64,000 nt of DNA, from NCBI GenBank assembly GCA_964538855.1, contig CAZIEY010000001.1:18811-82810 (forward strand), read 5' to 3'. Made by a program: the position numbers and the translations under genes. The stretch's first letter is position 1. Each line of letters opens with the position of its first letter. Shown piece after piece: positions 3,476 to 60,365 of the stretch. The notes under the pieces are model-generated. The model did not search any database and was not told the DNA's origin. It saw only the letters and a program-made list of their open reading frames with translations. Source of the DNA: an uncultured Candidatus Saccharibacteria bacterium (GTDB lineage Bacteria; Patescibacteriota; Minisyncoccia; Phycocordibacterales; JAACPR01).

Positions 3476-4387
3476 TTAACTGGTTTGTAATGCCTCTGCC
3501 CCCGCGATGATTTCTGCCACTTCTTGTGTAATGTTTGCCTGACGCGCTCGGTTATACGTCAGCACCAGCGAATCGACAATTTCGGTGGCGTTCTTTGTCG
3601 CATTCTGCATCGCAAACATTCGTGAGCAATGCTCTGATGCGCCAGCCTCGAGCATCATTTGGAACAAAAGTGTGGTGATAAAGTCCGGGATAATAGTGTC
3701 CAAAATGTGCTGCTCACTCGGCTCGAATATATATTCGGCCATACCTTTTTCGGTGGGTGTGAAGTTATCCTTGATACCATCAGAATCAAAAACGATTTCA
3801 CGAGACACCGCGGTTGTAACCGGCAAAATTTGTTTTACACAAGTCACATATGACATTTGGCTTATACATTCTGTGTAAGCCACTATGACGTGTTTGTATT
3901 TTTCACCTGTTCCGAAATTTGCAAGAATATGATTTTGCAACATCGTAATGTGCGCCGAATCAAAATCATCTTTGAACTCATTGAATCGTTCGATCACTGC
4001 AAGACCAAATCGACGTGCAATTTTTTCAGCTTGTTTACCAATAGTGATGCACTCAACAATTTCTCCAGGATGAGACTTGATATATTTATTCACCATCTTT
4101 GAGACATTCACATTGTATGAACCGCACAAACCTTTGTTCGAAGCGATAATCACCATGAGAGTTGCCGTGCCTTTTCCTTCTTCCATGAGCGGATGTGTGA
4201 TGTTTCGCTCGCTCACCAACGTCTTCAGGATTTCAAGTGCATATTTTGCATATTCACGAGATGCAGACGCGCGCGCAGTAGCTTTACGCATTTTGGCAAC
4301 CGACACCATTTCCATAGTGCGTGTAATTTTTCGGATGTTTTGCACCGAAACAATTTTTTGTTTGATTGTTTTAATTTGCGTCGCCAT
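3476..4387 (-). CDS. atpG: F-type ATP synthase gamma subunit
   Basis: 303 aa, located between the alpha and beta genes. The C-terminus AEIIAGAEALQ is gamma-like. Confidence 0.88.
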   Translation of the reverse strand: MATQIKTIKQKIVSVQNIRKITRTMEMVSVAKMRKATARASASREYAKYALEILKTLVSERNITHPLMEEGKGTATLMVIIASNKGLCGSYNVNVSKMVNKYIKSHPGEIVECITIGKQAEKIARRFGLAVIERFNEFKDDFDSAHITMLQNHILANFGTGEKYKHVIVAYTECISQMSYVTCVKQILPVTTAVSREIVFDSDGIKDNFTPTEKGMAEYIFEPSEQHILDTIIPDFITTLLFQMMLEAGASEHCSRMFAMQNATKNATEIVDSLVLTYNRARQANITQEVAEIIAGAEALQTS

Positions 4388-9129: not shown

Positions 9130-9732
9130 TTACTTACACTCCCCCTCCTCCACATTCAAAACAACTTTTTCAAATCCAGCCATTGTAAACATTGCGGTTA
9201 ATTGCTTCTCCGCATTAGCACGCGCCACCATCAAAATCCCTGCGTCACACGCGGCTTGTCGAATTGAAATTTCAGCTGCGAGACGAGCTTCGGATTCAAG
9301 TTGAGGATCGCCTTTAGTAAAAATCCCGAGCTTGCGGTCATAGACACGAGTTTTTTCGTTGTCCAAACGGCTTACCAAAATTTCAGGGCTCGGCATGTCG
9401 ATTTCGAGGCTCGTGCCAGACACCTTTACATCGCCCGCCTCCAATTTCGCCAAATCAAAACCCGCAATCACATCCGCATGTGCAATGAGCAAAATCTTGT
9501 CGCCATATAAAATGTTTTGAAACGCGTTACCTTGGACGCCACCTTCAATAATTTTCTCGAGCGTAAATGACGCAGTTTCCAAACGATTGAACGACTTAAT
9601 TTCCTTGACCACGCTCGCCTGATTGAGCAAAATTCGCGATTCAGGTCCCGCAAAAAATGAATACAATTTGTAAGCTCCAAGCAAAAGAACAACGAACACA
9701 ATTATCGAGAGAATGTTTTTAAGAATTTTCAT
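9130..9732 (-). CDS. Membrane-anchored protein, DUF4230-like (tentative)
   Basis: 200 aa with an N-terminal transmembrane segment. The overall pattern is similar to DUF4230 proteins as recalled. No enzymatic motif was seen. Confidence 0.45.
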   Translation of the reverse strand: MKILKNILSIIVFVVLLLGAYKLYSFFAGPESRILLNQASVVKEIKSFNRLETASFTLEKIIEGGVQGNAFQNILYGDKILLIAHADVIAGFDLAKLEAGDVKVSGTSLEIDMPSPEILVSRLDNEKTRVYDRKLGIFTKGDPQLESEARLAAEISIRQAACDAGILMVARANAEKQLTAMFTMAGFEKVVLNVEEGECK

Positions 9733-10183: not shown

Positions 10184-11217
10184 ACAAGCAAAAATTGCAA
10201 GTATATTTTTTATTAGCTGCCCTAGTCGGATCCGCTATTATCTCTTTTTTGATCTTCAAACCCTTTATCTACGCACTCATCCTCGCCGTCGTCGTTGCTA
10301 CAATTTGTGCACCAATTCATGATCGGATTTTAGCCCGCATCAAACAAAGGAACGGAATGGCGGCAATCATTTCCACCCTACTCGTTTTAGTTATTGTCAT
10401 TATCCCTCTCTCGCTTCTCGGCACGCAAATTTTTAAGGAAGCAGGTTCAGTCTACATATACCTCACAAGTGACGAAGGTTCCCACATCATCGCATCTGGC
10501 ACCAATCACACCCTAGACGTATTACGCCAAACATTTCCTGCGCTACGCGACGTCACCATTAACGTCAATCAATACGCGCGAGATTTTTTGAGTTGGCTTT
10601 TACCATATTGGGGTTCACTCTTCTCAAACATTCTAAAGATTTTAATGAGCACATTCATATTCCTCCTCGCACTCTACTATCTATTCAAAGATGGTACAAA
10701 ATTACGTTCAAGTGTTACTTTGATCAGTCCGCTCGAAGACAAATACGACGCACTCATTTTTGCAAAAGTAGGACGAGCTATCAATTCGGTCGTGAAAGGA
10801 AATCTGATTGTTGCCATGATTCAAGGCGCACTCACTTGTATTGGCTTTCTCATTTTTGGAGTCCCGAGCGCCGTGTTATGGGGTAGCGTCGCAGTAGTCA
10901 CCGCAATCATCCCTGGAGTTGGAACAGCTCTTGTCGTCATCCCTGCGCTTGTCTATCTTTTCCTCTCTGGCCACATCATCGCATTTGTCGGTCTTTTGAT
11001 TTGGGGAATTGTGGCAGTCGGATTGGTTGATAATATTCTCGGACCACACCTCGTCGAAAAAGGAATTCAAATTCATCCGTTTCTCATTCTGCTTTCGGTG
11101 CTCGGAGGTCTCGCCCTCTTTGGCCCTCTCGGATTTTTGATGGGTCCGATTATTTTAAGTCTTCTCTTTACTCTTGCACAAATTTATTCTGACATCGTGA
11201 ACAAAGAAAACATATGA
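10180..11217 (+). CDS. AI-2E family transporter (PerM/YhhT-like, UPF0118)
   Basis: Polytopic membrane protein with AI-2E-like blocks. The track ORF begins at 10087 but its first 31 codons overlie the terminator and uORF, so the ATG at 10180 (MNKQKLQVYFLL) is chosen. Confidence 0.75.
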   Translation: MNKQKLQVYFLLAALVGSAIISFLIFKPFIYALILAVVVATICAPIHDRILARIKQRNGMAAIISTLLVLVIVIIPLSLLGTQIFKEAGSVYIYLTSDEGSHIIASGTNHTLDVLRQTFPALRDVTINVNQYARDFLSWLLPYWGSLFSNILKILMSTFIFLLALYYLFKDGTKLRSSVTLISPLEDKYDALIFAKVGRAINSVVKGNLIVAMIQGALTCIGFLIFGVPSAVLWGSVAVVTAIIPGVGTALVVIPALVYLFLSGHIIAFVGLLIWGIVAVGLVDNILGPHLVEKGIQIHPFLILLSVLGGLALFGPLGFLMGPIILSLLFTLAQIYSDIVNKENI

Positions 11218-36948: not shown

Positions 36949-37848
36949 TTATTTCTCCCCCACATCATGCCCACCAAACTGATTTCGCAACGCCGAGACG
37001 ACTTTGCCAGTGTAGGTTGGATTGCCGGTTGATTTTTTGCGGAAGTCGAGAGAACCTTTGATGATCGGAGTTTTGACGCCGAACTTACGCGCCGCTTTGA
37101 CGGTCCACTCGCCTTCGCCACTGTGAGAAACTTCGCCAGAAATACCGTTCAATTCAGTTGTATTTTTTGCAAACGCCTGACCGAGCCAACCGACGAGACG
37201 TGATTCGATCACCGACCCGTGATTATAAATTCGCGCCACCTCCGCGAGATCAAAATTAAATTCGGACTTTTTGAGCACTTCGAATCCCTCACCAATCGCC
37301 TGCATCATGCCGTATTCGATGCCGTTGTGCACCATTTTTGCAAAGTGACCCGCGCCCGACGCGCCCATGTACGCAAAGCCCTGCGCAACCGACAAATCCG
37401 CAAAGAGCGGAGTCAATTCGTCGTAGAGAGCCCGTTCGCCACCAATCATGAGACACGCCCCGTTGCGCGCTCCACCCGGACCGCCCGAAGTACCGATGTC
37501 CATAAAGCGAATGCCTTTGCGAGTCAATTTTTTGGCACGCTTGACCGTTTCGGTGTACGGCGAGTTTCCTCCGTCAATCAAAATGTCGCCCTTCGACAAG
37601 AATGGCGCGACCCGTGCAATCATTTCATCGACTGCTTGCCATGGCACCATGAGCCAGACAATTTTGCGCTCGTTGCCGAACTTTTCAAAAATTTCTGCGA
37701 TGCTGTGCGCTGCGATTGCCCCGCGAGTCGCGAGCTGGTCCGCCTTTTCCGGACTGCGATTCCACGCAACCACCTCGTGCCCCTTTTCCAAAAGCCGCTC
37801 CGCCTGCCCCATCCCCATTTTCCCAAGTCCAATGTATGCAATTTTCAT
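36949..37848 (-). CDS. gnd: 6-phosphogluconate dehydrogenase (short, YqeC-like form)
   Basis: MKIAYIGLGKMG Rossmann motif plus 6PGDH-like blocks. The start is moved to the ATG at 37848, which has TATAAT 6 nt upstream. The track start at 37896 adds 16 residues. Confidence 0.8.
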   Translation of the reverse strand: MKIAYIGLGKMGMGQAERLLEKGHEVVAWNRSPEKADQLATRGAIAAHSIAEIFEKFGNERKIVWLMVPWQAVDEMIARVAPFLSKGDILIDGGNSPYTETVKRAKKLTRKGIRFMDIGTSGGPGGARNGACLMIGGERALYDELTPLFADLSVAQGFAYMGASGAGHFAKMVHNGIEYGMMQAIGEGFEVLKKSEFNFDLAEVARIYNHGSVIESRLVGWLGQAFAKNTTELNGISGEVSHSGEGEWTVKAARKFGVKTPIIKGSLDFRKKSTGNPTYTGKVVSALRNQFGGHDVGEK

Positions 37849-37883
37849 GAGGAGATTATAGCATTTTTGGGTTGAGGGATAAG

Positions 37884-37930
37884 GGTTTGTGGACACTTGA
37901 CTATACGTGTATATTATGCTATTATATATT
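37884..37930 (+). repeat. Promoter module R1, GGGTTTGTGGACACTTGACT-N17-TATTAT (copy 1 of 2)
   Basis: TTGACT at 37897-37902. It is nearly identical to the sequence at 39919-39963. Confidence 0.6.
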
Positions 37931-39883: not shown

Positions 39884-39918
39884 ATGGGAATATTGTAGCA
39901 TTTTGATGCTTATTTTTA

Positions 39919-39963
39919 AGGGTTTATGGACACTTGACTTTATAGATATATATGCTATTATAA
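39919..39963 (+). repeat. Promoter module R2, GGGTTTATGGACACTTGACT-N16-TATTAT (copy 2 of 2)
   Basis: TTGACT at 39934-39939. It is back-to-back with the zwf promoter. Confidence 0.6.
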
Positions 39964-52355: not shown

Positions 52356-52937
52356 ATGCATCATCACCACGCAAAATATTTCAAAGCCTTTCTCGTCGTC
52401 TATTTAATCTTTTCTATATATATGTTGTCGGAACACAATTTCGGCAACTTGATGGGAATGCTCGGAATTGGGCTCGGTCTTTTGGTTGCGGTACTTGCCC
52501 ACTCTCGTTATGGATATTTAACAATCGGACTTTTGCTCGTGCACATGTTTATCGAATGGAGCGAACACGGCATGCATTGGGCCGGCTATTCACACGGTGA
52601 AATTGCAATGAATGTGATTCACATTGCGCTCGACTTTATTTTCTTGTATCAAGAATTGCGCGTTCACGCAGCCCGATATTTCAAGCCAATTTTTTCTGGC
52701 GTCATTATCGCACTCTGTCTCACTTTCGCACACGGCGCATATATAGGGCATCACGAACATGACACGCATGAAGCCGAAGCAGTTCATCACGAGGAGGAAC
52801 ATGCGGATAAACACGAGGGAGAAGAACATGCTCATGAAGGCTCACTCATCGAAGCATTCGTTGTTGGCGGTATGTTTGGTTGCATCCTATCGCACCTTTT
52901 CAGACGAAAGGATGAGTGCGGGGAAAGACACGATTAA
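52356..52937 (+). CDS. His-rich membrane protein with a C-terminal His/Glu/Asp-rich metal-binding-like tail
   Basis: MHHHH N-terminus, four transmembrane helices, and the tail HHEHDTHEAEAVHHEEEHADKHEGEEHAHEG. Confidence 0.55.
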   Translation: MHHHHAKYFKAFLVVYLIFSIYMLSEHNFGNLMGMLGIGLGLLVAVLAHSRYGYLTIGLLLVHMFIEWSEHGMHWAGYSHGEIAMNVIHIALDFIFLYQELRVHAARYFKPIFSGVIIALCLTFAHGAYIGHHEHDTHEAEAVHHEEEHADKHEGEEHAHEGSLIEAFVVGGMFGCILSHLFRRKDECGERHD

Positions 52938-53050
52938 AAATAAAAACTCCCAATTTTAAAAGTCTGGTTGAGCATCAACACAAAACGTACATCCATTATC
53001 GAATGTACGTGATGCGACCCGAGGACTTTAAAATTGGGAGTTTTTATTTT
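52938..53050. repeat. Long-hairpin element E1 (copy 1), a bidirectional terminator between convergent genes
   Basis: The outer stem aaaaactcccaattttaaaagtc/gactttaaaattgggagttttt continues into inner stems gcatca/tgatgc and cgtacat/atgtacg, flanked by A and T runs. It has a homologue at 59367-59490. Confidence 0.6.
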
Positions 53051-54463
53051 TTAATCTTTCTTCTGTGCTTTCACACTTAAACCCAAATCGGTTAATTGAT
53101 CAATTGATGCAACAGACGGTGCATTCATCATCAAGTCACGACCTTCACCAGTCTTTGGGAAGGCAATAACTTCACGAATGTTAGGCTCACCCATCATGAG
53201 CATCACAATTCGATCGATTCCAGGCGCAAACCCACCGTGTGGAGGCGCACCATATTTAAAGGCTTCTAACATGTGACCAAATTTTTGTTGTTGTACTTCT
53301 GGACTGATATTCAGCAACTCAAATACTTTTTGTTGCATATCAGATTTATGAATTCGAATACTTCCTGATGACAATTCATATCCGTTCAAAACAAGATCGT
53401 ATGATTTTGCACGAATAGACATCAAATCCTCGCCTTTCATAAATTTATCCATATCCTCGTCATTAATAGAACAGAATGGATGGTGCGCCGCTTGAATTCC
53501 TCCTTCTGGAAGTTTTTCAAACATTGGGAAATCTACAACCCACGCAAATGCAAGTTCGTTTGGATTGTTTTTATCCTTTCGCATATCAGGCTTATCGCTG
53601 CCATATTTTGCCATTGATTCAGCATACGTGATTCGCGGGAAAGGAATTTGAGTGATTGTTTTCTCTGGGAACAATTTTGTCACCATTTCGATAAACATTG
53701 GTTCGGTAAAACTCAAAATGTCTTCTTGATCAACGAATGACATTTCGAAGTCGAGCTGAGTAAATTCTGGTTGTCGATCACCTCGCAAATCTTCATCACG
53801 CATACATCGCGCAATTTGGAAATATCGTTCAAACCCACCAATCATACTGAGTTGTTTAAATTGTTGTGGTGATTGAGGAAGCGCATAAAACTTTCCTTTT
53901 TCAATTCGTGATGGCACTAAATATTCTCGTGAACCTTCTGGAGTTCCCTTCATCAAAATCGGAGTTTCGATTTCGACGAATTTATTTTTGTGCATATAAT
54001 CTCGGAAGAATGAAATGATTGCATCACGTGTACGAATATTTTTCTGCAAACGTGGTCGTCGCAAATCCAAATAACGATATTTGAGGCGAACTTCTTCACC
54101 AATTTCCTTGCCATCACCTCGCACATCGATTGGCGGAGTTTCAGCTTCATTCAAAACTTTAATACCTAAAATTTCAAGTTCAATATCGCCGTTTTGCTTG
54201 TCGGCTTGAACATTTTTTGGAGGACGAGCATTAACTTTTCCAGACACTTCAACAACCCACTCTGGTCGCAAAGTTTCTCCGACAGCTTTTGCTTCTGTCG
54301 CGCCCGGCAATACAACACCTTGTACATATCCTGACATGTCACGAAAATCTAGGAAAATGAGTTTTCCTTGATCTCGACGTACATCAACCCAACCGAGAAT
54401 TGTAACCTCGGTACCAATATGATTCTTTAACTCTTCAATAAAAATTCTTTTTTTCATAAGCAT
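53051..54463 (-). CDS. aspS: Aspartate--tRNA ligase (short form lacking the GAD insertion)
   Basis: FYALPQSPQQFKQLSMIGGFERYFQIARCMRDED (motif 2) and GGFAPGIDRIVML (motif 3). N-terminal OB fold. 470 aa. Confidence 0.9.
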   Translation of the reverse strand: MLMKKRIFIEELKNHIGTEVTILGWVDVRRDQGKLIFLDFRDMSGYVQGVVLPGATEAKAVGETLRPEWVVEVSGKVNARPPKNVQADKQNGDIELEILGIKVLNEAETPPIDVRGDGKEIGEEVRLKYRYLDLRRPRLQKNIRTRDAIISFFRDYMHKNKFVEIETPILMKGTPEGSREYLVPSRIEKGKFYALPQSPQQFKQLSMIGGFERYFQIARCMRDEDLRGDRQPEFTQLDFEMSFVDQEDILSFTEPMFIEMVTKLFPEKTITQIPFPRITYAESMAKYGSDKPDMRKDKNNPNELAFAWVVDFPMFEKLPEGGIQAAHHPFCSINDEDMDKFMKGEDLMSIRAKSYDLVLNGYELSSGSIRIHKSDMQQKVFELLNISPEVQQQKFGHMLEAFKYGAPPHGGFAPGIDRIVMLMMGEPNIREVIAFPKTGEGRDLMMNAPSVASIDQLTDLGLSVKAQKKD

Positions 54464-54499
54464 TCGCGAGTCTCCCCGCGTTTATTTTTTATAGAAGTC

Positions 54500-54690
54500 G
54501 GAGAAACAAAAAGCCCCTCCGAATTCATGTTGATAAATTCGCAGGGGCGATTTTGTCGCGGTGCCACCCTGTTTGTTGCTCATTATGACGTCTTTCGGGC
54601 GTCCAGTTCCGAGGGCTTCTACGTGCGCCGCACATTGCAAACGCATTTCCTGCCCCGTATCTCGCCGGTGTCTGCCGGGTCATTGATATA
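54500..54690 (-). promoter_or_regulatory. T-box riboswitch leader upstream of aspS
   Basis: The minus strand carries AACAGGGTGGCACCGCGA, which matches the T-box core AGGGTGGNACCGCG. The terminator gcccctgcgaat/attcggaggggc plus a T-run lies just upstream of the aspS SD. A candidate specifier GAC sits in the loop ccggcaGACAccgg. A TTGCAT-N16-TATACT promoter is upstream. Confidence 0.65.
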
Positions 54691-54721
54691 TACAGTATAC
54701 GGAAGTGAGAGCGAAATGCAA

Positions 54722-55888
54722 CTAGAATTTATCTGCTGCGTCTTCTGCCAATTCTTGAGCCTCTTCAGCAGCATCAATTGCATCCTCATAATCTTCATCA
54801 TCGAATGCCTCTTCAGCTTCATCAAGAGCATCTCGTGCATCGTCGAGTAATTCTTCTGCTTCATCAATATCATCTTCATCTTCATCATTATCCTTTGCAT
54901 CGTCAATTGCCTCCTCCGCATCATCAATTGCATCTTTTGCATCATCAATTGCATCTTCGGCTTCGTCCGCTTCATCATTTTCACCAATTGCGTCTTCGGC
55001 ATCTTTAGCTAAATCTTCCGCTTCCTCGGCAAGATCGATGGCCTCTTCATAATCTTCATTATCCATTGCCTCTTCAGCTTCTTCTAATTTTTGCTCTGCT
55101 TCATCAAGCAACTCTTCCGCCTGGTCAACATCTTCATCATTATTATCTGCGTCTTCTATTTTTTGCTCCGCAGCATCAATTCTATCTTCGGCTTTATCAA
55201 TTGCATTATCTGCTTCATCTTCATCAGTTTCACCACCTGCGTCTTCGTATGCATCAACTGCATTATCATACGCATCTTCAGCAGATTTCAATGCATCTGC
55301 ATAATCTTTCGAGAAATACGCATCGATTGCATCGAACAAATCAGTTCGCGCATCGTCAAGATTATCATCAGCTACATTTGTATCCTCACCATCGTCTTGG
55401 GCATCATCAATTTGCTCATCTGCATCTTCGACTGCTTTAATTGCCTTTTTAATCATTGCCTCAGCATCTCTTTGTTGAAAAGATATCACAGGAGAAGTGT
55501 TCGATACTGGAGGTGGAGTAACTACAACCGGAGCAGTTGAAGTAACAGGAGAAGCAGTTGCCGTATTCAAACTTGCAAATTTTGCACGAGACAACGGGCC
55601 GAAAGTCCCTGTGGCAGGAGAAATACCTTTCGCAATTTGCCATTTTTGAACCGCAACGCGTGTAAGTGGTCCGAATTTATTTGTCTCTGCTCCAGCAGAT
55701 CCAGGGCCTGTGCTTGTAATCACATATCCATTACTATTCAAATATTTTTGAAGGCAACGAACTTCTTCGCTCACAACCCCCTCTTCTAAATCAAGTGTAA
55801 AAACACAAGACGCCGCTGACGCTGGTGTCGCCACAAATGCCACCATCACCAGTGAACCCGCGATAATAATTTGTTTATATGCTTTCAT
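54722..55888 (-). CDS. Secreted peptidoglycan-binding-domain protein with a ~250-aa poly-acidic (Asp/Glu/Ala) repetitive tail
   Basis: A signal peptide MKAYKQIIIAGSLVMVAFVATPASA is taken as the start; the track ORF extends to 55939. The PG_binding_1-like block is LQKYLNSNGY...FGPLTRVAVQKWQ. The rest is D/E/A repeats such as DEAEEAIDDAKDAIDDAEEAIDDAKD. Confidence 0.65.
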   Translation of the reverse strand: MKAYKQIIIAGSLVMVAFVATPASAASCVFTLDLEEGVVSEEVRCLQKYLNSNGYVITSTGPGSAGAETNKFGPLTRVAVQKWQIAKGISPATGTFGPLSRAKFASLNTATASPVTSTAPVVVTPPPVSNTSPVISFQQRDAEAMIKKAIKAVEDADEQIDDAQDDGEDTNVADDNLDDARTDLFDAIDAYFSKDYADALKSAEDAYDNAVDAYEDAGGETDEDEADNAIDKAEDRIDAAEQKIEDADNNDEDVDQAEELLDEAEQKLEEAEEAMDNEDYEEAIDLAEEAEDLAKDAEDAIGENDEADEAEDAIDDAKDAIDDAEEAIDDAKDNDEDEDDIDEAEELLDDARDALDEAEEAFDDEDYEDAIDAAEEAQELAEDAADKF

Positions 55889-55954
55889 GATAATGCTATT
55901 AATGATTAATGTAGATATTATACCCCGATAAAGATACACGAGTCGTGAGTTTTC

Positions 55955-56896
55955 CTAACTATATAGCACTGCAAAATTAAACAAGACATTGAATTGCTTA
56001 CACCACACGAGTGCGTACGGATATTCACGAGGATCAATGCCGGCAGGAATTTCATAATTCACGTTTCCTTCGGTGGCTTTGACTGGGCCGAGGTTTACAA
56101 AGTCGGTCGCATTGATGTCTTTTGATAGGTACACGAAAATATCTGGGCCGTTTACCGTTTTAAAATTCTCGTAGCGCAAAAAATGTGCGAGGCCAGATTG
56201 TACAACGCGCACAGTACCAGACGCAGGATGCAGCGGAGTATCGATTAATTGTTTCGGTGATGTTTCGTAGTTGATTGCCGCGACATTATCTTCTGCGACA
56301 GTAGAGGTGGCATTCTGTACAGAGGCAACAGGAAGCGCTTCATCCACGCGAATATTGATGAAGAGTGGCGAAATTGTGTAGTACAAGAACCAGGCGATTA
56401 ATAGGACAATGACTCCAGCAATTAATTGTTTTATTTTTCTGATACACATATAACGTTTGAGGTCTTTAAATACAGCGCTCGGTTTCATATATTCATCAGC
56501 AGCCGTTGCAATTAATACATTATCACCGACATCAAATGATTGTGAGCTGATATTCCCAGGATTTGGCGCATGTGGTCCACATTCATCTTGTAACTGCACC
56601 GCGACTGGCACGTGGGAAATATTATGTGCGTGCATTACTTGTATGCGATGATTGCCGGTTTCCAATCGATATTTTTTATTTTTAAGTCCTACTCGTACGA
56701 TAAGCGGCTCAAACATTCCATTAGTGATCAAATCAATCCATAATTTCTCAAAGTCGACCATATCACCATTCATCAAATCAGTATACGGCTCGACATCAGT
56801 GCCACGAATTTTCATAACCCACTCGATCGGAATCAACTCGACAAATCCTTGTTTATAGAGAACGTGTTTTTTCCAATGTGGTTGTATCCTATTCAT
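55955..56896 (-). CDS. Fusion protein: ParB/Srx-like nuclease N-domain, transmembrane helix, and C-terminal DM13 domain
   Basis: The N-terminus has the ParB N-domain pattern (PLIVRVGLKNKKYRLETGNHRIQV). A single transmembrane segment, IAGVIVLLIAWFLYY, follows. The C-terminus GPDIFVYLSKD...YPYALVWCKQFNVLFNFA matches DM13. Confidence 0.55.
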   Translation of the reverse strand: MNRIQPHWKKHVLYKQGFVELIPIEWVMKIRGTDVEPYTDLMNGDMVDFEKLWIDLITNGMFEPLIVRVGLKNKKYRLETGNHRIQVMHAHNISHVPVAVQLQDECGPHAPNPGNISSQSFDVGDNVLIATAADEYMKPSAVFKDLKRYMCIRKIKQLIAGVIVLLIAWFLYYTISPLFINIRVDEALPVASVQNATSTVAEDNVAAINYETSPKQLIDTPLHPASGTVRVVQSGLAHFLRYENFKTVNGPDIFVYLSKDINATDFVNLGPVKATEGNVNYEIPAGIDPREYPYALVWCKQFNVLFNFAVLYS

Positions 56897-57098
56897 GTGA
56901 TTTTTTCCGCTGTGCTTTATTCCATTGTATCAAACTATTGCCTTTGGATTTTTTACCAACATATGTGCCGCCCCGCTTTTTATATAATGTCACCGCGTGT
57001 TGCATCGCGCGTGCAGAAAATTTTCCCATTTTAAATACTGCTTCTTTTTTACAAGCTTCCCATAATTCGGGGTTGGTGCGAGTAGTAGGCGTTGACAT
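56889..57098 (-). CDS. Small conserved hypothetical protein (69 aa)
   Basis: NPELWEACKKEA...GKFSARAMQHAVTLYKKRGG pattern. It overlaps the downstream gene start by 8 nt. Confidence 0.45.
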   Translation of the reverse strand: MSTPTTRTNPELWEACKKEAVFKMGKFSARAMQHAVTLYKKRGGTYVGKKSKGNSLIQWNKAQRKKSHE

Positions 57099-57101
57099 AC
57101 G

Positions 57102-57542
57102 TTAGTTATACAGTACGTATGATTTAGTCAATGAATTTACTGCGTCAGTTGGGCCGTACAACAACGCACCTAAATATTCTAACTCTGCATCACTTTTCGA
57201 TTGAATAGACTGAACCAACTCATCGTCGTGCCGAGTATCCAACATGTCGCGTGGAAAATCGATCAAAGTAAGACCGGCAGTCGAACGAGCTTTTGAAATA
57301 GTTTCGGCGATATGCGACACAGTCCCCTTTTTAATAATAAAACCAAAACGTGCGATGCCTTTGTGGATAACACCGTCTTTATCGAGCAACACATCTCGCC
57401 CCATCAACATGTCGTCCTTGTGTGCCCCAAGCGAAACCGCCATATGTCCAAGCACATTCATAGCTTGCCATGGTTCGAGATTTTCTGAAATAATTGCGAC
57501 GATTTTGTGGGATTTGTAGTCGTATGTCATATTACTGTGCAA
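57102..57542 (-). CDS. DUF2000-like protein (tentative)
   Basis: 146 aa. KIVAIISENLEPWQAMNVLGHMAVSLG pattern. Confidence 0.45.
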   Translation of the reverse strand: MHSNMTYDYKSHKIVAIISENLEPWQAMNVLGHMAVSLGAHKDDMLMGRDVLLDKDGVIHKGIARFGFIIKKGTVSHIAETISKARSTAGLTLIDFPRDMLDTRHDDELVQSIQSKSDAELEYLGALLYGPTDAVNSLTKSYVLYN

Positions 57543-58407
57543 GAATAGTCTTAATCACCGCCTCCAACCCCGCCAAATTTTGCTCGAATTCAACTGTCTC
57601 GTGAGTTTTTAATTCGACACCAATTGATGGAATACCGACAGTTGAAAGCCAATCGCTCGCGTCGCCTGTCACTACATACTGACTAAAGGTGTCGTTCATG
57701 GGATATCCAGACGCAGTCGAGTACGCAGACATGAACGCACGTGTTGAAGCTGCAATTGGCGCATTACAGCCCGCACCAAATACTCCGTTTGAAGCGCTAT
57801 GAGCAAAGATAACAACTCGAGGCATTCGAGCCGTCACCCAATCACGAAACCCCGCCGTTTCAGGTTCGGAAAATGCAGCAGTACCAGCACTAACTTTTTT
57901 GTTTTGCCACACACCTTTGGCTTGCCAATTACAATCGAAATTACGATTCAAATCCACCCCATGTGCATTAAATCGTCCAGGTGCAGTACCCATCACATCG
58001 GGAATCGTTGCAAGATTCACAAAACGATCCGTTGTTCCTGTGATTTTGAAATATCCATCAGGATTCAATGTAGGAATAATTGTTACTTTGAGATGCGCAG
58101 GGATAATGGCCCGATTCACATCAAAATAATCCATCAAACGATACGCGAGTAACACGGTATTCCACTCATATCCGCCATGAATACCTCCAACAAACACAAT
58201 TTCATTCGGTCCACTTCCGTATGTATGAGCTTCGATCGAACGCCCTTCTACCGAAGTCGCCACCGTTGATGTTGTGTAGGTTTCAACAATTGGCAGTGTA
58301 GGAACTTCGACTACAGGCGCGTCGGTGAAAAATTCTCCACGAAACAAGAAAAGCCCGACACCAATCAGGATGATTGCAAAAATGACGAGCAAACTTTTCT
58401 TGTTCAT
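57532..58407 (-). CDS. Secreted M14-family zinc carboxypeptidase-like protein (paralogue 1, ligands intact)
   Basis: N-terminal transmembrane/signal segment. IHGGYEW (His...Glu), the M14 hallmark GVDLNRNF, a later FAHSAS His, and GVELKTHE Glu. Confidence 0.75.
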   Translation of the reverse strand: MNKKSLLVIFAIILIGVGLFLFRGEFFTDAPVVEVPTLPIVETYTTSTVATSVEGRSIEAHTYGSGPNEIVFVGGIHGGYEWNTVLLAYRLMDYFDVNRAIIPAHLKVTIIPTLNPDGYFKITGTTDRFVNLATIPDVMGTAPGRFNAHGVDLNRNFDCNWQAKGVWQNKKVSAGTAAFSEPETAGFRDWVTARMPRVVIFAHSASNGVFGAGCNAPIAASTRAFMSAYSTASGYPMNDTFSQYVVTGDASDWLSTVGIPSIGVELKTHETVEFEQNLAGLEAVIKTILAQ

Positions 58408-58416
58408 AACCGATTT

Positions 58417-59307
58417 TTATTTAGAGAATTCTGCGAGAACTGCCTGAATACCCTTTAGATTTTTATCCCATTCAACTTGGCTGTGTGTTGCGAGAATTAC
58501 TCCGACTGCTGGAATATTCATCTTTGAAAGCCAGTCGCTCATGTCGCCCGTGATTGAATAGTCTTCGAATGAGTCATGACCTGGGTAACCAGATGCTTTG
58601 GCATACGTGCTCACAAGTGCCTTTGTTGCTGCAGAAATACTGCCACATCCAGATGCATACACACCGTTTGCTGCGCTGTACCAAGAAATTACCGCCGCAG
58701 GAGTATTCGCTGTTACATAGTCACGAAATGCAGCTGCTTCTGGTTCTGAAAAAGCAGATGTTCCCGCACTAATAGTTTTGCTCTGCCATGTAGCATCCGC
58801 CTTCCAATTACAATCAAAGTTTCGGTTCAAATCCACATTGTGTGCATTAAATCGTCCTGAAATAGTTGCTGGAGTTTCAGGAATGTTGCTGAGATCGATA
58901 TCTGCAGTCGTAGTACCCATAATTTTATAAAATCCATCCGGGTTCAAAAGAGGAATCACTGTGACTTTCAAATTTTCAGGAACGACAGTTGGATTAGCTT
59001 CCAAATAATCCATCAAACGATACGCAAGAAGCGCTGTGTTCCAAGAATATCCTCCGTGCACACCTCCAACAAAAAGAATTTCTTTGTCGCCGTTTCCGTA
59101 TGAATGCGCCATAATGTCACGACCTTCAACAGATTTTCCAATGACACCAGTTGGAGTTTCCTCTACGACAGGCGCTGTAGTTGTGGAAGTTGTTGTGGTA
59201 GTGGTAGTCGTGGTTATTGTAGGAGCCTCGACTTGGTCTTTGTTAAAAAATGCAAATCCTGCCCACGCAATCAAAACCACTGCAATAATAGTAACGAGAT
59301 ATTTCAT
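58417..59307 (-). CDS. M14 carboxypeptidase-like paralogue 2 with substitutions at the presumptive Zn-ligand and catalytic positions (likely pseudo-enzyme) and a poly-Thr linker
   Basis: It aligns colinearly with paralogue 1. At the aligned positions VHGGYSW has Ser for Glu, SWYSAA has Tyr for His, and GVILATHS has Ile for Glu, while DLNRNF is retained. A T9-S-T3 linker follows the transmembrane segment. Confidence 0.7.
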   Translation of the reverse strand: MKYLVTIIAVVLIAWAGFAFFNKDQVEAPTITTTTTTTTTSTTTAPVVEETPTGVIGKSVEGRDIMAHSYGNGDKEILFVGGVHGGYSWNTALLAYRLMDYLEANPTVVPENLKVTVIPLLNPDGFYKIMGTTTADIDLSNIPETPATISGRFNAHNVDLNRNFDCNWKADATWQSKTISAGTSAFSEPEAAAFRDYVTANTPAAVISWYSAANGVYASGCGSISAATKALVSTYAKASGYPGHDSFEDYSITGDMSDWLSKMNIPAVGVILATHSQVEWDKNLKGIQAVLAEFSK

Positions 59308-59366
59308 GTTTTTATGAATTAAGCTTGTAAAACCTGAATGAGCTATTGCCTATAGTATAGCACGAA

Positions 59367-59490
59367 GCCCCAATTACAAAAACCCTCGATTTTAAAGTCC
59401 TCGGGTCACATCACGTGAGTTCTACAATAGAAATACGTTTATATTGATGCTCAACCAGACTTTTAAAATCGAGGGTTTGTGTAATTGGGG
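59367..59490. repeat. Long-hairpin element E2 (inverted copy of E1)
   Basis: Its reverse complement shares two exact core blocks with E1: TTTTAAAAGTCTGGTTGAGCATCAA (25 nt) and a 28-nt block that differs only at one C/T position. The outer stem shows compensatory changes (ccctcgatt/aatcgaggg here versus ctcccaatt/aattgggag in E1). Confidence 0.6.
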
Positions 59491-59648
59491 TAAGACCCAA
59501 GTTATGCTTTTGCTTTCGGTTTTTTCTTTACTTCTTTTCTACGTGAATTGTTGCCTTTTGCCATGATGTTTGGTTATATTGGTAATGGGGATATTATATA
59601 TCAAAATGATTGTAATTTTAAATACTTATCAAATTTGTAGGCGTAATA

Positions 59649-60365
59649 TTACGAGCGCCAAGCTTCTTTTATTTTTTCTGACATTTTTCTAAAGTACTTA
59701 TCATTCGTGAGCGTGTTATCTAAAAAGGTTTGTTCATCGGCTGTAATTGTGTGGGCGACTGACTTTTTAAGCGCTAGTAATTTAAGCCGTTCAAATCTGT
59801 ATGTCTCGGTATCAGCTTCAAAATGTGGTTTTGAATTCGCATATGGACCGCGCACAACTTTCATAGAAGCCGCGTCAAATCGCGTATCTATTTCGTTAGG
59901 ATATTTTTCCAGCGACGAGAGAAACGTGTAAATATCATCCAGGCTCATTTCAATACCAATTTCACGTAAATCTGAGTCTGACTCTACGTCCATAATATGT
60001 GTCTTCCAAGCCACATACTCATCTGCCAAATCAATTGCGCGTCTCTTTTCTATAAATTCTTGGAGTGCGGGATGTCCGTCCATTTCCTGCTCTATCTTCG
60101 CTTTAGCTTCATCTGAAGCGTTGGGATTTATATATTCAAAATATCGACGCAGAAACAACATACGAACACGTATTGATTCTGTCTGCGCCTCAGTAGCACG
60201 ACGAAGATATTCTTGCAATTCCTGCTTTTCTTCCTCAGAAACGGTGATTTGTAAAATTTGAGGAAACGTCGCCTTGAGAAAAATAAGAGCCAGTTTCTCC
60301 AAGAGTGCTTCATTGAGCGGCTCATTCGATTCAAAATCTGGTTCTCCTGGTTCCGTGAATGGCAT
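59649..60365 (-). CDS. Hypothetical protein
   Basis: 238 aa, acidic and helical. No recognisable motif. Confidence 0.5.
   Translation of the reverse strand: MPFTEPGEPDFESNEPLNEALLEKLALIFLKATFPQILQITVSEEEKQELQEYLRRATEAQTESIRVRMLFLRRYFEYINPNASDEAKAKIEQEMDGHPALQEFIEKRRAIDLADEYVAWKTHIMDVESDSDLREIGIEMSLDDIYTFLSSLEKYPNEIDTRFDAASMKVVRGPYANSKPHFEADTETYRFERLKLLALKKSVAHTITADEQTFLDNTLTNDKYFRKMSEKIKEAWRS

Follow-up and report, generated by a model that had tools for sequence, protein, structure and literature searches.

Palindromic elements of a family found in Patescibacteria probably reside in the loops of two intrinsic terminators flanking the aspS-M14 segment of a Saccharibacteria contig

We analyzed a 64-kb window (the whole 64,000-nucleotide stretch; contig CAZIEY010000001.1, assembly GCA_964538855.1) from an uncultured Candidatus Saccharibacteria bacterium of the Patescibacteria, or candidate phyla radiation (CPR), in which two long hairpins, here termed E1 and E2, lie on opposite strands on either side of a 6.3-kb segment extending from aspS to M14 peptidase genes. 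E1 (positions 52932 to 53056, plus strand; arms 52932 to 52964 and 53024 to 53056 in the inverted-repeat listing) occupies the entire gap between a 193-aa open reading frame (ORF) without any family match (52356 to 52937, plus strand) and the convergent aspS gene, which codes for a 470-aa aspartate-tRNA ligase (53051 to 54463, minus strand). The stop codons of these two genes (52935 to 52937 and 53051 to 53053) are located inside the left and right arms of the hairpin, respectively. E2 (59368 to 59490, minus strand; outer arms CCCCAATTACACAAACCCTCG and CGAGGGTTTTTGTAATTGGGG) is found 11 nt past a 20-aa basic ORF (MAKGNNSRRKEVKKKPKAKA; 59502 to 59564, minus strand) and 60 nt ahead of an M14 peptidase gene. 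This small ORF has a promoter-like TTTAAA-18-TATAAT string (59622 to 59593), is conserved as MAKGNNAQQKKIKKPKKAKA in the syntenic relative L184, and is probably a real micro-gene. An earlier note on this DNA had placed each copy 3' of a gene end; this holds for E1 relative to the 193-aa ORF (plus strand) and for E2 relative to the 20-aa ORF (minus strand), with the addition that E1 also abuts aspS.

The two hairpins have in common the strings AGTCTGGTTGAGCATCA and TGATGYGACCCGAGGACT, each of which occurs exactly twice in the 64 kb, with one occurrence in each element and the two on opposite strands, against chance expectations of 0.15 and 0.04 matches in the window; upon alignment, the common blocks are identical except for one C/T difference. 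The predicted folds have energies of -53.1 kcal/mol for E1 (z score, -10.2) and -57.4 kcal/mol for E2 (z score, -8.0), with none of 200 shuffles being equally stable in either case, and the two strands of E1 fold alike (about -52 to -53 kcal/mol either way). E1 and E2 are also the longest two local inverted repeats of the window, the remaining hairpins being ordinary short terminators. A covariance model of 43 family members (see below) scores E1 at 74.5 bits and E2 at 69.7 bits and detects no third copy in the window, where the next-best match reaches 13.5 bits. Rfam gave no match in the window at gathering thresholds, and permissive E-value thresholds recovered only sub-threshold noise of the microRNA type of long hairpin. 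Thus, two inverted long-hairpin copies with exact core blocks are indeed present, both fold as the earlier note had proposed to check, and its view that a sequence-specific core goes beyond a generic terminator is borne out, the two being homologous members of one hairpin family.

Close syntenic relatives, reached via the 193-aa ORF and aspS cluster, revealed the state of both sites in genomes without the elements; another 80 metagenome loci around aspS relatives (53 to 82% identical) were unusable for this comparison because they have no copy and no synteny (0 of the top 30 syntenic). In L184 and L185, the gap between aspS and the 193-aa ORF is 50 nt long and contains a canonical bidirectional terminator (A6-CAGACUCG-loop-CGAGUCUG-U6; -27 kcal/mol on either strand), and in L186 to L188, the site reads AAAUAAAACUGCCAUUAAUGGCAGUUUAUUUU / AAAUAAAAUAAACUGCCAUUAAUGGCAGUUUAUUUUAUUU with no insert. 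The window has at the same place AAAUAAAAACUCCC-(84 nt)-GGGAGUUUUUAUUUU, i.e., AAAAAUAAAAACUCCC-(84 nt)-GGGAGUUUUUAUUUUU, and the outer stem of E1, CUCCC/GGGAG, is homologous to CUGCC/GGCAG of L186 to L188, with one compensated change from G-C to C-G. The left half of the host terminator (52936 to 52951, plus strand), consisting of an A tract and the stem CTCCC, corresponds to AAAUAAAACUGCC in the relatives, and comparison with them likewise identifies the right half (53036 to 53052, plus strand), with the stem GGGAG and a T tract. The outer part of E1, with its A/U tracts and 5-bp stem, is thus the host terminator, whose loop holds the element proper, an 84-nt stretch (52952 to 53035, plus strand) that is missing from the orthologous terminator in L184 and L186 to L188 and aligns with E2 and with a further copy in L013. 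It has the arms AATTTTAAAA and TTTAAAATT, a 5' core block, GTCTGGTTGAG (52962 to 52972, plus strand), a 3' core block, GACCCGAGGAC (53016 to 53026, plus strand), and between them, from fold and alignment, an inner helix, GCAUCA/UGAUGC, with a variable apical hairpin, ACGUACAU...AUGUACGU (52973 to 53015, plus strand).

At the E2 site, L184 displays the conserved 20-aa ORF, followed by a plain terminator, GCCCGC-CUUGU-GCGGGC-U5, and then by TTCGTGCTATA(A/C)T upstream of the M14 gene. The last string is kept between the window and L184, and E2 replaces the plain terminator of L184. The element proper of E2 is 81 nt long (59389 to 59469, minus strand), with the arms ATTTTAAAA and TTTAAAAT, core blocks at 59460 to 59450 and 59407 to 59397, and an apical hairpin. 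Both composites have the layout of an intrinsic terminator, namely, CUCCC...GGGAG-UUUUUAUUUUUU, mirrored on the other strand, in E1, and CCCUCG...CGAGGG-UUUUUGU in E2. The copy in L013, the third of the window subtype, comes directly after a 5S rRNA gene and inside a hairpin with an A tract, stem, and U tract, such that all three known copies of this subtype are in terminator loops. In the more distant relative L189, a different hairpin element (…GUCCUCGC…GGAGGAU…; L189:1895-1960) occupies the loop of the same terminator between aspS and the 193-aa ORF, which suggests that terminator loops are hit repeatedly. The proposal that E1 and E2 are terminator-like elements therefore stands as to their position, a syntenic relative having intrinsic terminators at both sites, but the G+C-rich stem base and U tract that signal termination are derived from the host and not from the conserved core, because the outer stem and A/U tracts of E1 preexist in the relatives. 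By the same token, the difference between the outer helices (ctcccaatt/aattgggag versus ccctcgatt/aatcgaggg), which had been read as covariation, is real, but the orthologous sites identify these helices as two different host terminator stems. We also observed that the plain terminator at L184:9414-9463 has the stem CAGACUCGG/CGAGUCUG, of which CGAGUCUG resembles the arm/core junction CGAGU-GUCUG of copies found inside genes (see below); this may be a coincidence or a footprint.

To place E1 and E2 in a wider family, the pattern GTCTGGTTGAG-N30-60-GACCCGAGGAC was searched against 185,579 species, represented by one genome each. This recovered 97 stretches, nearly all from metagenome-assembled genomes (MAGs) of Patescibacteria/CPR, including Paceibacteria/Parcubacteria, Campbellbacteria, Nomurabacteria, and Saccharibacteria, in which GUCUGGUUGAG…(C)GACCCGAGGAC flanks a variable apical stem-loop. 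Tens of copies each are present in LBYO01, MFAC01, JBBTTR01, and JAGXAA01, and four matches in G+C-rich non-CPR genomes lack the hairpin and look like chance. The 107 instances retrieved have both core blocks in common by construction of the search, and their arms and apical stem-loops are highly diverse. A search of 98 loci with the covariance model gave 147 matches, approximately 35 of which have mutated cores that the pattern had missed. Among viral contigs of IMG/VR, we recovered 0 and 1 matches, and among annotated plasmids and phages, there was no family match. [quoted passage not shown]

RNAalifold predicts a single long hairpin for 43 representatives. From the outside, an outer helix of variable sequence and a small internal loop lead to an invariant GUCU/GGAC helix with one U.G pair and a 3-nt CGA bulge on the 3' strand; further in, an invariant GGUU/GACC helix, also with one U.G pair, is followed by a 5'-strand GA bulge, a G-C pair, and a variable helix with its loop. 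The core can alternatively be drawn as GG-UU-GA-G / C-GA-CC in the style of K-turn or tandem G.A motifs; RNAalifold favors GGUU/GACC with the GA bulge, and covariation is silent on the alternative because all of those core positions are invariant. Over these 43 diverse copies, 90.7% of the cells are paired, versus 67.4% in shuffles, and the covariation score is 0.535, versus 0.14 in shuffles and 0.24 to 0.25 when the partners are slid by one column. Double-sided changes occur in 17 of the 26 pairs, and the variable helices contain 27 G.U against 10 A.C combinations. The apical helix differs yet remains paired in the three copies of the window subtype (CGUACAU/AUGUACG in E1, UUCUA/UAGAA in E2, and GCUCUU/AAGAGC in L013), and a second class of copies (class 2) carries extra purine-rich internal loops, CGAG/CGAG and GCGNAGC/GCGAAGC. 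Of 100 copies, the same strand folds better in 75 when modeled as RNA and in 85 when modeled as DNA, a modest bias. Relative to genes, the copies are found in all four orientations, with 15 between divergent genes and a 37-versus-18 split among co-directional intergenic copies, and intergenic copies display decay within the core. A comparison of mismatch rates between core and arms is biased by the way in which the copies were selected, and we do not use it as evidence. As a separate observation, L071 has two copies 250 nt apart (3693-3758 and 4008-4092) with near-identical arms, one of which has a minimal GCCC-AGCA-GGGC tip, indicating that the apical domain is almost wholly dispensable. The search for relatives in other genomes that the earlier note had recommended yielded many copies and real compensatory variation.

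Evidence for mobility comes from a high-copy subfamily (class 1), with arms ...TTGAATTACGAAAYGCAAAAATTTATG / CTAAATTTTTGCRTTTCGTAATTCA... and terminal inverted repeats YYTTGAATTACGAAA... / ...TTTCGTAATTCAWAG, for which the window subtype has ATTTTAAAA / TTTAAAAT beside the core. Class-1 elements are about 113 to 117 bp long, compared to 81 to 84 nt for those of the window; both are below the limit of about 300 bp for MITEs, and neither kind has any coding capacity itself. Of the 71 class-1 copies, 31 have an exact direct repeat of at least 7 nt immediately beyond the inverted ends, at a constant offset, and 10 more have a 6-nt match there. These repeats are A/T rich and specific to each copy, as expected of target-site duplications. 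Furthermore, at L019:3716-3940, one copy is nested in the apical loop of another and flanked by the duplication TATAAGA. With its 7-bp target-site duplication and a nested insertion, the class-1 subfamily is a true MITE. The outermost 4 to 5 nt of the class-1 ends vary among subfamilies and remain complementary, and a sub-lineage with an altered core (GUCUAUUUGAG / GAUUCAAGGAC) has spread in MFAC01. Decayed copies are also present. Solo arms, split core halves, and multicopy ORFs were sought across the loci, and only truncated copies and orthologous housekeeping genes were found.

A G+C-richer set of copies is found within long ORFs, where the frame is kept open without any stops. The core as written and the host ORF are always on opposite strands, and three frames are used (GPRV...LNQT, RSSGR...AQPD, and VLGS...STRP); in this antisense orientation, 8 of the 11 in-gene copies have two stop-free frames, and intergenic class-1 copies mostly have none. 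The in-frame insertions affect essential genes and include the zinc-finger loop of LigA (L008 and L094), a loop just before the TTTPW motif of IleRS-like proteins (L055, L074, and L045; the same site, with different frames and unrelated arms), UvrD/PcrA-like genes (L036 and L095), and PolA-like genes (L066 and L067). Uninterrupted LigA orthologs read CPxCGGKVEKK-6 aa-SVAYYC, in place of the 35 aa that separate those anchors in L008, and orthologs without the insert are shorter there by about 29 to 32 aa. Among 120 CPR LigA orthologs (P0001 to P0120; 668 to 784 aa), an insert of at least 12 aa is present in the zinc-finger loop in 66 and in a second loop in 49. These inserts represent many recurring hairpin-encoded peptide families of 20 to 35 aa (e.g., SGAFALGDKGQGTHDALN, KNSSALLHPAGGTFREKNF, and ESSSSKGPRFSG..QTISHRTL), and the DNA of all nine inserts examined folds into a long hairpin, in some cases with a reduced GUCUG...CCGAGGAC core. 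GCGNAGC repeats that flank some in-gene copies may be a target duplication or a part of the hairpin. Two further observations concern these LigA genes: that of L008 (L008:98-2368) alone has three different hairpin inserts, and at L100:6463-7816, a bAvd-like gene and a reverse transcriptase gene, a pair of the diversity-generating retroelement type, lie just downstream of a LigA gene with two hairpin inserts.

Several known systems offer parallels. Rickettsia palindromic elements (RPEs; Ogata et al. 2000), in the summary given in PMC10969869, are noncoding sequences of approximately 100 to 150 bp that are either intergenic or inserted in frame and stop free in unrelated housekeeping genes of the reduced genomes of host-dependent bacteria, where they are tolerated in surface loops and their mobilizing enzyme is unknown. 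The family described here is likewise palindromic, noncoding, and both intergenic and in frame in housekeeping genes. However, it belongs to the phylum Patescibacteria, and the likeness is one of pattern, with no sequence kinship expected; it also has a 22- to 23-nt asymmetric core common to subfamilies with unrelated arms and one subfamily with clear 7-bp target duplications, and its window copies are intergenic rather than in genes. Correia elements of Neisseria duplicate TA and carry a site for integration host factor (IHF). SPRITE of Streptococcus pneumoniae is a small palindromic repeat that is located at gene ends and brings its own terminator-like sequence (PMC10969869). Like both of these, the present elements are small palindromes at gene ends that form long hairpins in transcripts and are able to supply or modify terminators; unlike them, they sit in the loop of a host terminator to which the termination signals belong.

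The insertion sequences (IS) IS1397 and ISKpn1, which are full elements with transposase genes, target repetitive extragenic palindromic (REP) sequences and insert into the loops of REP/bacterial interspersed mosaic element palindromes. As in our case, landing in an existing hairpin loop results in flanks that are complementary but copy specific; here, in contrast, the element that enters terminator loops is nonautonomous and 80 to 115 bp long, and other subfamilies enter plain A/T-rich 7-mers. REPs themselves are 20 to 40 nt long, have a GTAG motif, do not duplicate their target, and are mobilized by REP-associated tyrosine transposases (RAYTs), and REPINs (REP doublets) reach about 100 nt. 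To our knowledge, REPs are not found in frame within genes. The resemblance lies in imperfect palindromes with conserved mismatches that are repeated many times, mostly intergenic, and long-lived in a lineage. Hence, the label "REP-like" in the earlier note applies if used broadly for a small repeat element that is palindromic but not by strict REP/RAYT standards, given the size of 81 to 125 nt, the lack of a GTAG motif, and the 7-bp duplication of class 1; no RAYT gene was seen, though no search aimed at RAYT was made. With respect to ordinary intrinsic terminators, the E1 and E2 composites show the same G+C-rich stem base with a U tract behind it, exactly at the sites of canonical terminators in the relatives, E1 having A/U tracts on both sides in a bidirectional-like arrangement, but they are 120-nt hairpins in which a structured insert of 81 to 84 nt replaces a loop of 4 to 9 nt. 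We regard the family as palindromic repeats of the known MITE/RPE-like kind, in which the conserved internal core and the scale of in-frame colonization of CPR housekeeping genes are worth following.

Taken together, these results make it probable that E1 and E2 are old copies of a nonautonomous, palindromic, MITE-like element specific to Patescibacteria/CPR, each lodged in the loop of a preexisting intrinsic terminator whose function would be preserved. The target-site duplications and the in-frame gene insertions favor a mobile DNA element over a dedicated RNA gene, and of the conserved RNA structure that had been proposed for the two copies, what holds is the real compensatory change in the element's own apical helix. 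The element is composed of short A/T arms, a conserved asymmetric core, and a variable apical stem-loop and, being self-complementary overall, would in the mechanism that we envisage extend the host hairpin rather than break it. The G+C-rich stem base and U tract of the host could still close a single hairpin, so that termination would be kept, in both directions at E1; insertion would then be tolerated, and a selfish element could survive in terminator loops. The layout of E1 and E2 accordingly predicts that the composite hairpins are working terminators. Compensatory changes in the apical helix might reflect selection for hairpin continuity or palindrome-templated correction, and conservation of the core might mean that copies propagate only when it is intact or that it is bound by a protein, possibly the mobilizing enzyme.

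Several observations weigh against this reading. Neither E1 nor E2 shows a target-site duplication, and therefore, the case for their own mobility is drawn from relatives. Approximately 700 kb of flanking DNA yielded no transposase and no autonomous partner with matching ends. The spread of the altered-core subfamily in MFAC01 indicates that the core is not strictly needed for spreading. Conservation within the family is highest in the interior of the element, and the ends differ between subfamilies, the opposite of what is expected of an end-recognizing transposase, a contrast that is exaggerated by the core-based selection of copies. Finally, the conserved G.U and potential G.A mismatches are present on one strand only, the one that folds better in most copies; this hints that the functional form may be single stranded, a feature for which a plain double-stranded DNA transposon model has no need.

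Some of these features would be accommodated by a structured RNA module selected in place, i.e., a protein-binding, processing, or stabilizing element of 3' untranslated regions whose asymmetric core is functional and whose mobility is secondary. The strong pairing and covariation over the 43 copies, the changed but paired apical helix of E1, E2, and L013, the two invariant G.U pairs with the 3' CGA and 5' GA bulges (or a tandem G.A motif) on one strand, and the purine-rich loops of class 2 together with the preference for G.U over A.C are all in keeping with such a role. Nevertheless, we consider it doubtful: copies lie in all four gene orientations, even between divergent genes; in every in-gene copy, the strand that folds better is the one antisense to the mRNA; intergenic copies show decay of the core itself, and no Rfam family matches; there is no copy at the 80 loci around aspS relatives, and the syntenic loci L184 to L188 use plain terminators. 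Moreover, the inverted ends of any transposon yield apparent covariation without an RNA function. Likenesses of the core to hammerhead and hairpin ribozymes, bulge-helix-bulge introns, attC sites, the sarcin-ricin loop, and the T arm of tRNA were considered by eye and dropped, as the core appeared to lack essential consensus positions or the required geometry. Alternatively, the strand bias and the imperfect internal hairpin with fixed bulges, which recalls REP and IS608 ends, could point to a single-stranded DNA hairpin element of the REP/RAYT or IS200/IS605 type, in which an HUH-type or similar enzyme binds the bulged core and structure sets the ends. The better folding of one strand with DNA parameters, the orientation bias (in-gene copies all antisense, and the uneven split of co-directional intergenic copies), and the variable but complementary outermost nucleotides of class-1 ends agree with this. 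We nonetheless judge it improbable, because class 1 has a fixed 7-bp target-site duplication and IS200/IS605 and REP elements produce none; E1 and E2 also lie 6 kb apart in opposite orientations, an element of about 85 to 125 nt is far larger than a REP, and no Y1/HUH gene was seen, though no systematic search was made.

Least credible of all is the idea, raised in the earlier note, that E1 and E2 drive inversion or another rearrangement of the 6.3-kb aspS-M14 segment. The segment is indeed bracketed by inverted copies with identical blocks of 25 and 29 nt, but these blocks are short and split by the diverged apical region, and no neighboring gene codes for a recombinase. Syntenic relatives without either copy show the same gene order and orientation from Ldh_2 to PAP2, and E2 is crossed in an unchanged orientation by an independent assembly of the same strain, leaving the claim of an invertible segment unsupported. 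In the Logan assembly of SRR13208906, two contigs end inside E1 from opposite sides (L001 end, 10591-10626; L183 end, 9414-9506), yet the assembly continues through E2, and for this reason, a palindrome artifact is at least as likely a cause as a multicopy repeat; short-read assembly of CPR genomes may be prone to breaks at palindromes that are long and perfect.

Going beyond the MITE-like reading preferred here, recognition may involve a folded single strand, in view of the strand bias, the excess of G.U over A.C, and the unusual internal position of the conserved part. A bolder version, which we put forward only tentatively and do not expect to hold, is that the invariant asymmetric core (the GUCU/GGAC helix, 3' CGA bulge, GG/CC, and GA bulge) serves as a recognition module for a CPR-specific enzyme or binding protein acting on the folded strand, with the family representing structure-defined mobile hairpins that target terminator hairpin loops and tolerant protein loops throughout the phylum. 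If this is true, the mechanism would be distinct from that of end-defined MITEs, e.g., a single-stranded DNA- or RNA-mediated element comparable to a bacterial short interspersed nuclear element (SINE), and structure-defined hairpins with several sister families would have reshaped many CPR housekeeping proteins.

A few further features of the window deserve mention. The 470-aa AspS aligns to the bacterial AspS model (590 aa) as two separate segments, indicating that it does not have the usual insertion domain. A 238-aa ORF beside E2 (orf238; 59649-60365, minus strand) is missing from the otherwise syntenic L184 and L185 and is the sole member of its 90% cluster; it was considered as a transposase candidate and rejected, having no Pfam or NCBIfam match. 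Within the segment, an acidic protein with PG_binding_1 and DUF4398 domains (54722-55939, minus strand) is built from degenerate repeats, each about 39 nt long, with 15 of them in register. Elsewhere, a 68-nt direct repeat (37847-37914 and 39884-39951; 72% identity) with TTGACT...TATA-like strings may be a duplicated promoter region.

The reading preferred here, of MITE-like elements in terminator loops, explains two odd 120-nt hairpins of the window as terminators with a passenger element and removes the cases for an RNA gene and an invertible segment. In practical terms, extra loops of 20 to 35 aa affect gene calling and domain annotation of CPR MAGs, and the elements affect assembly, as in the public assembly whose contigs end inside E1, and provide natural markers for strain-level comparison. 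More generally, the tiny genomes of CPR bacteria appear to be heavily colonized by palindromic elements, both of this family and of the several sister families seen in LigA, for which the loops of terminators and the surface loops of essential proteins constitute two "safe havens."

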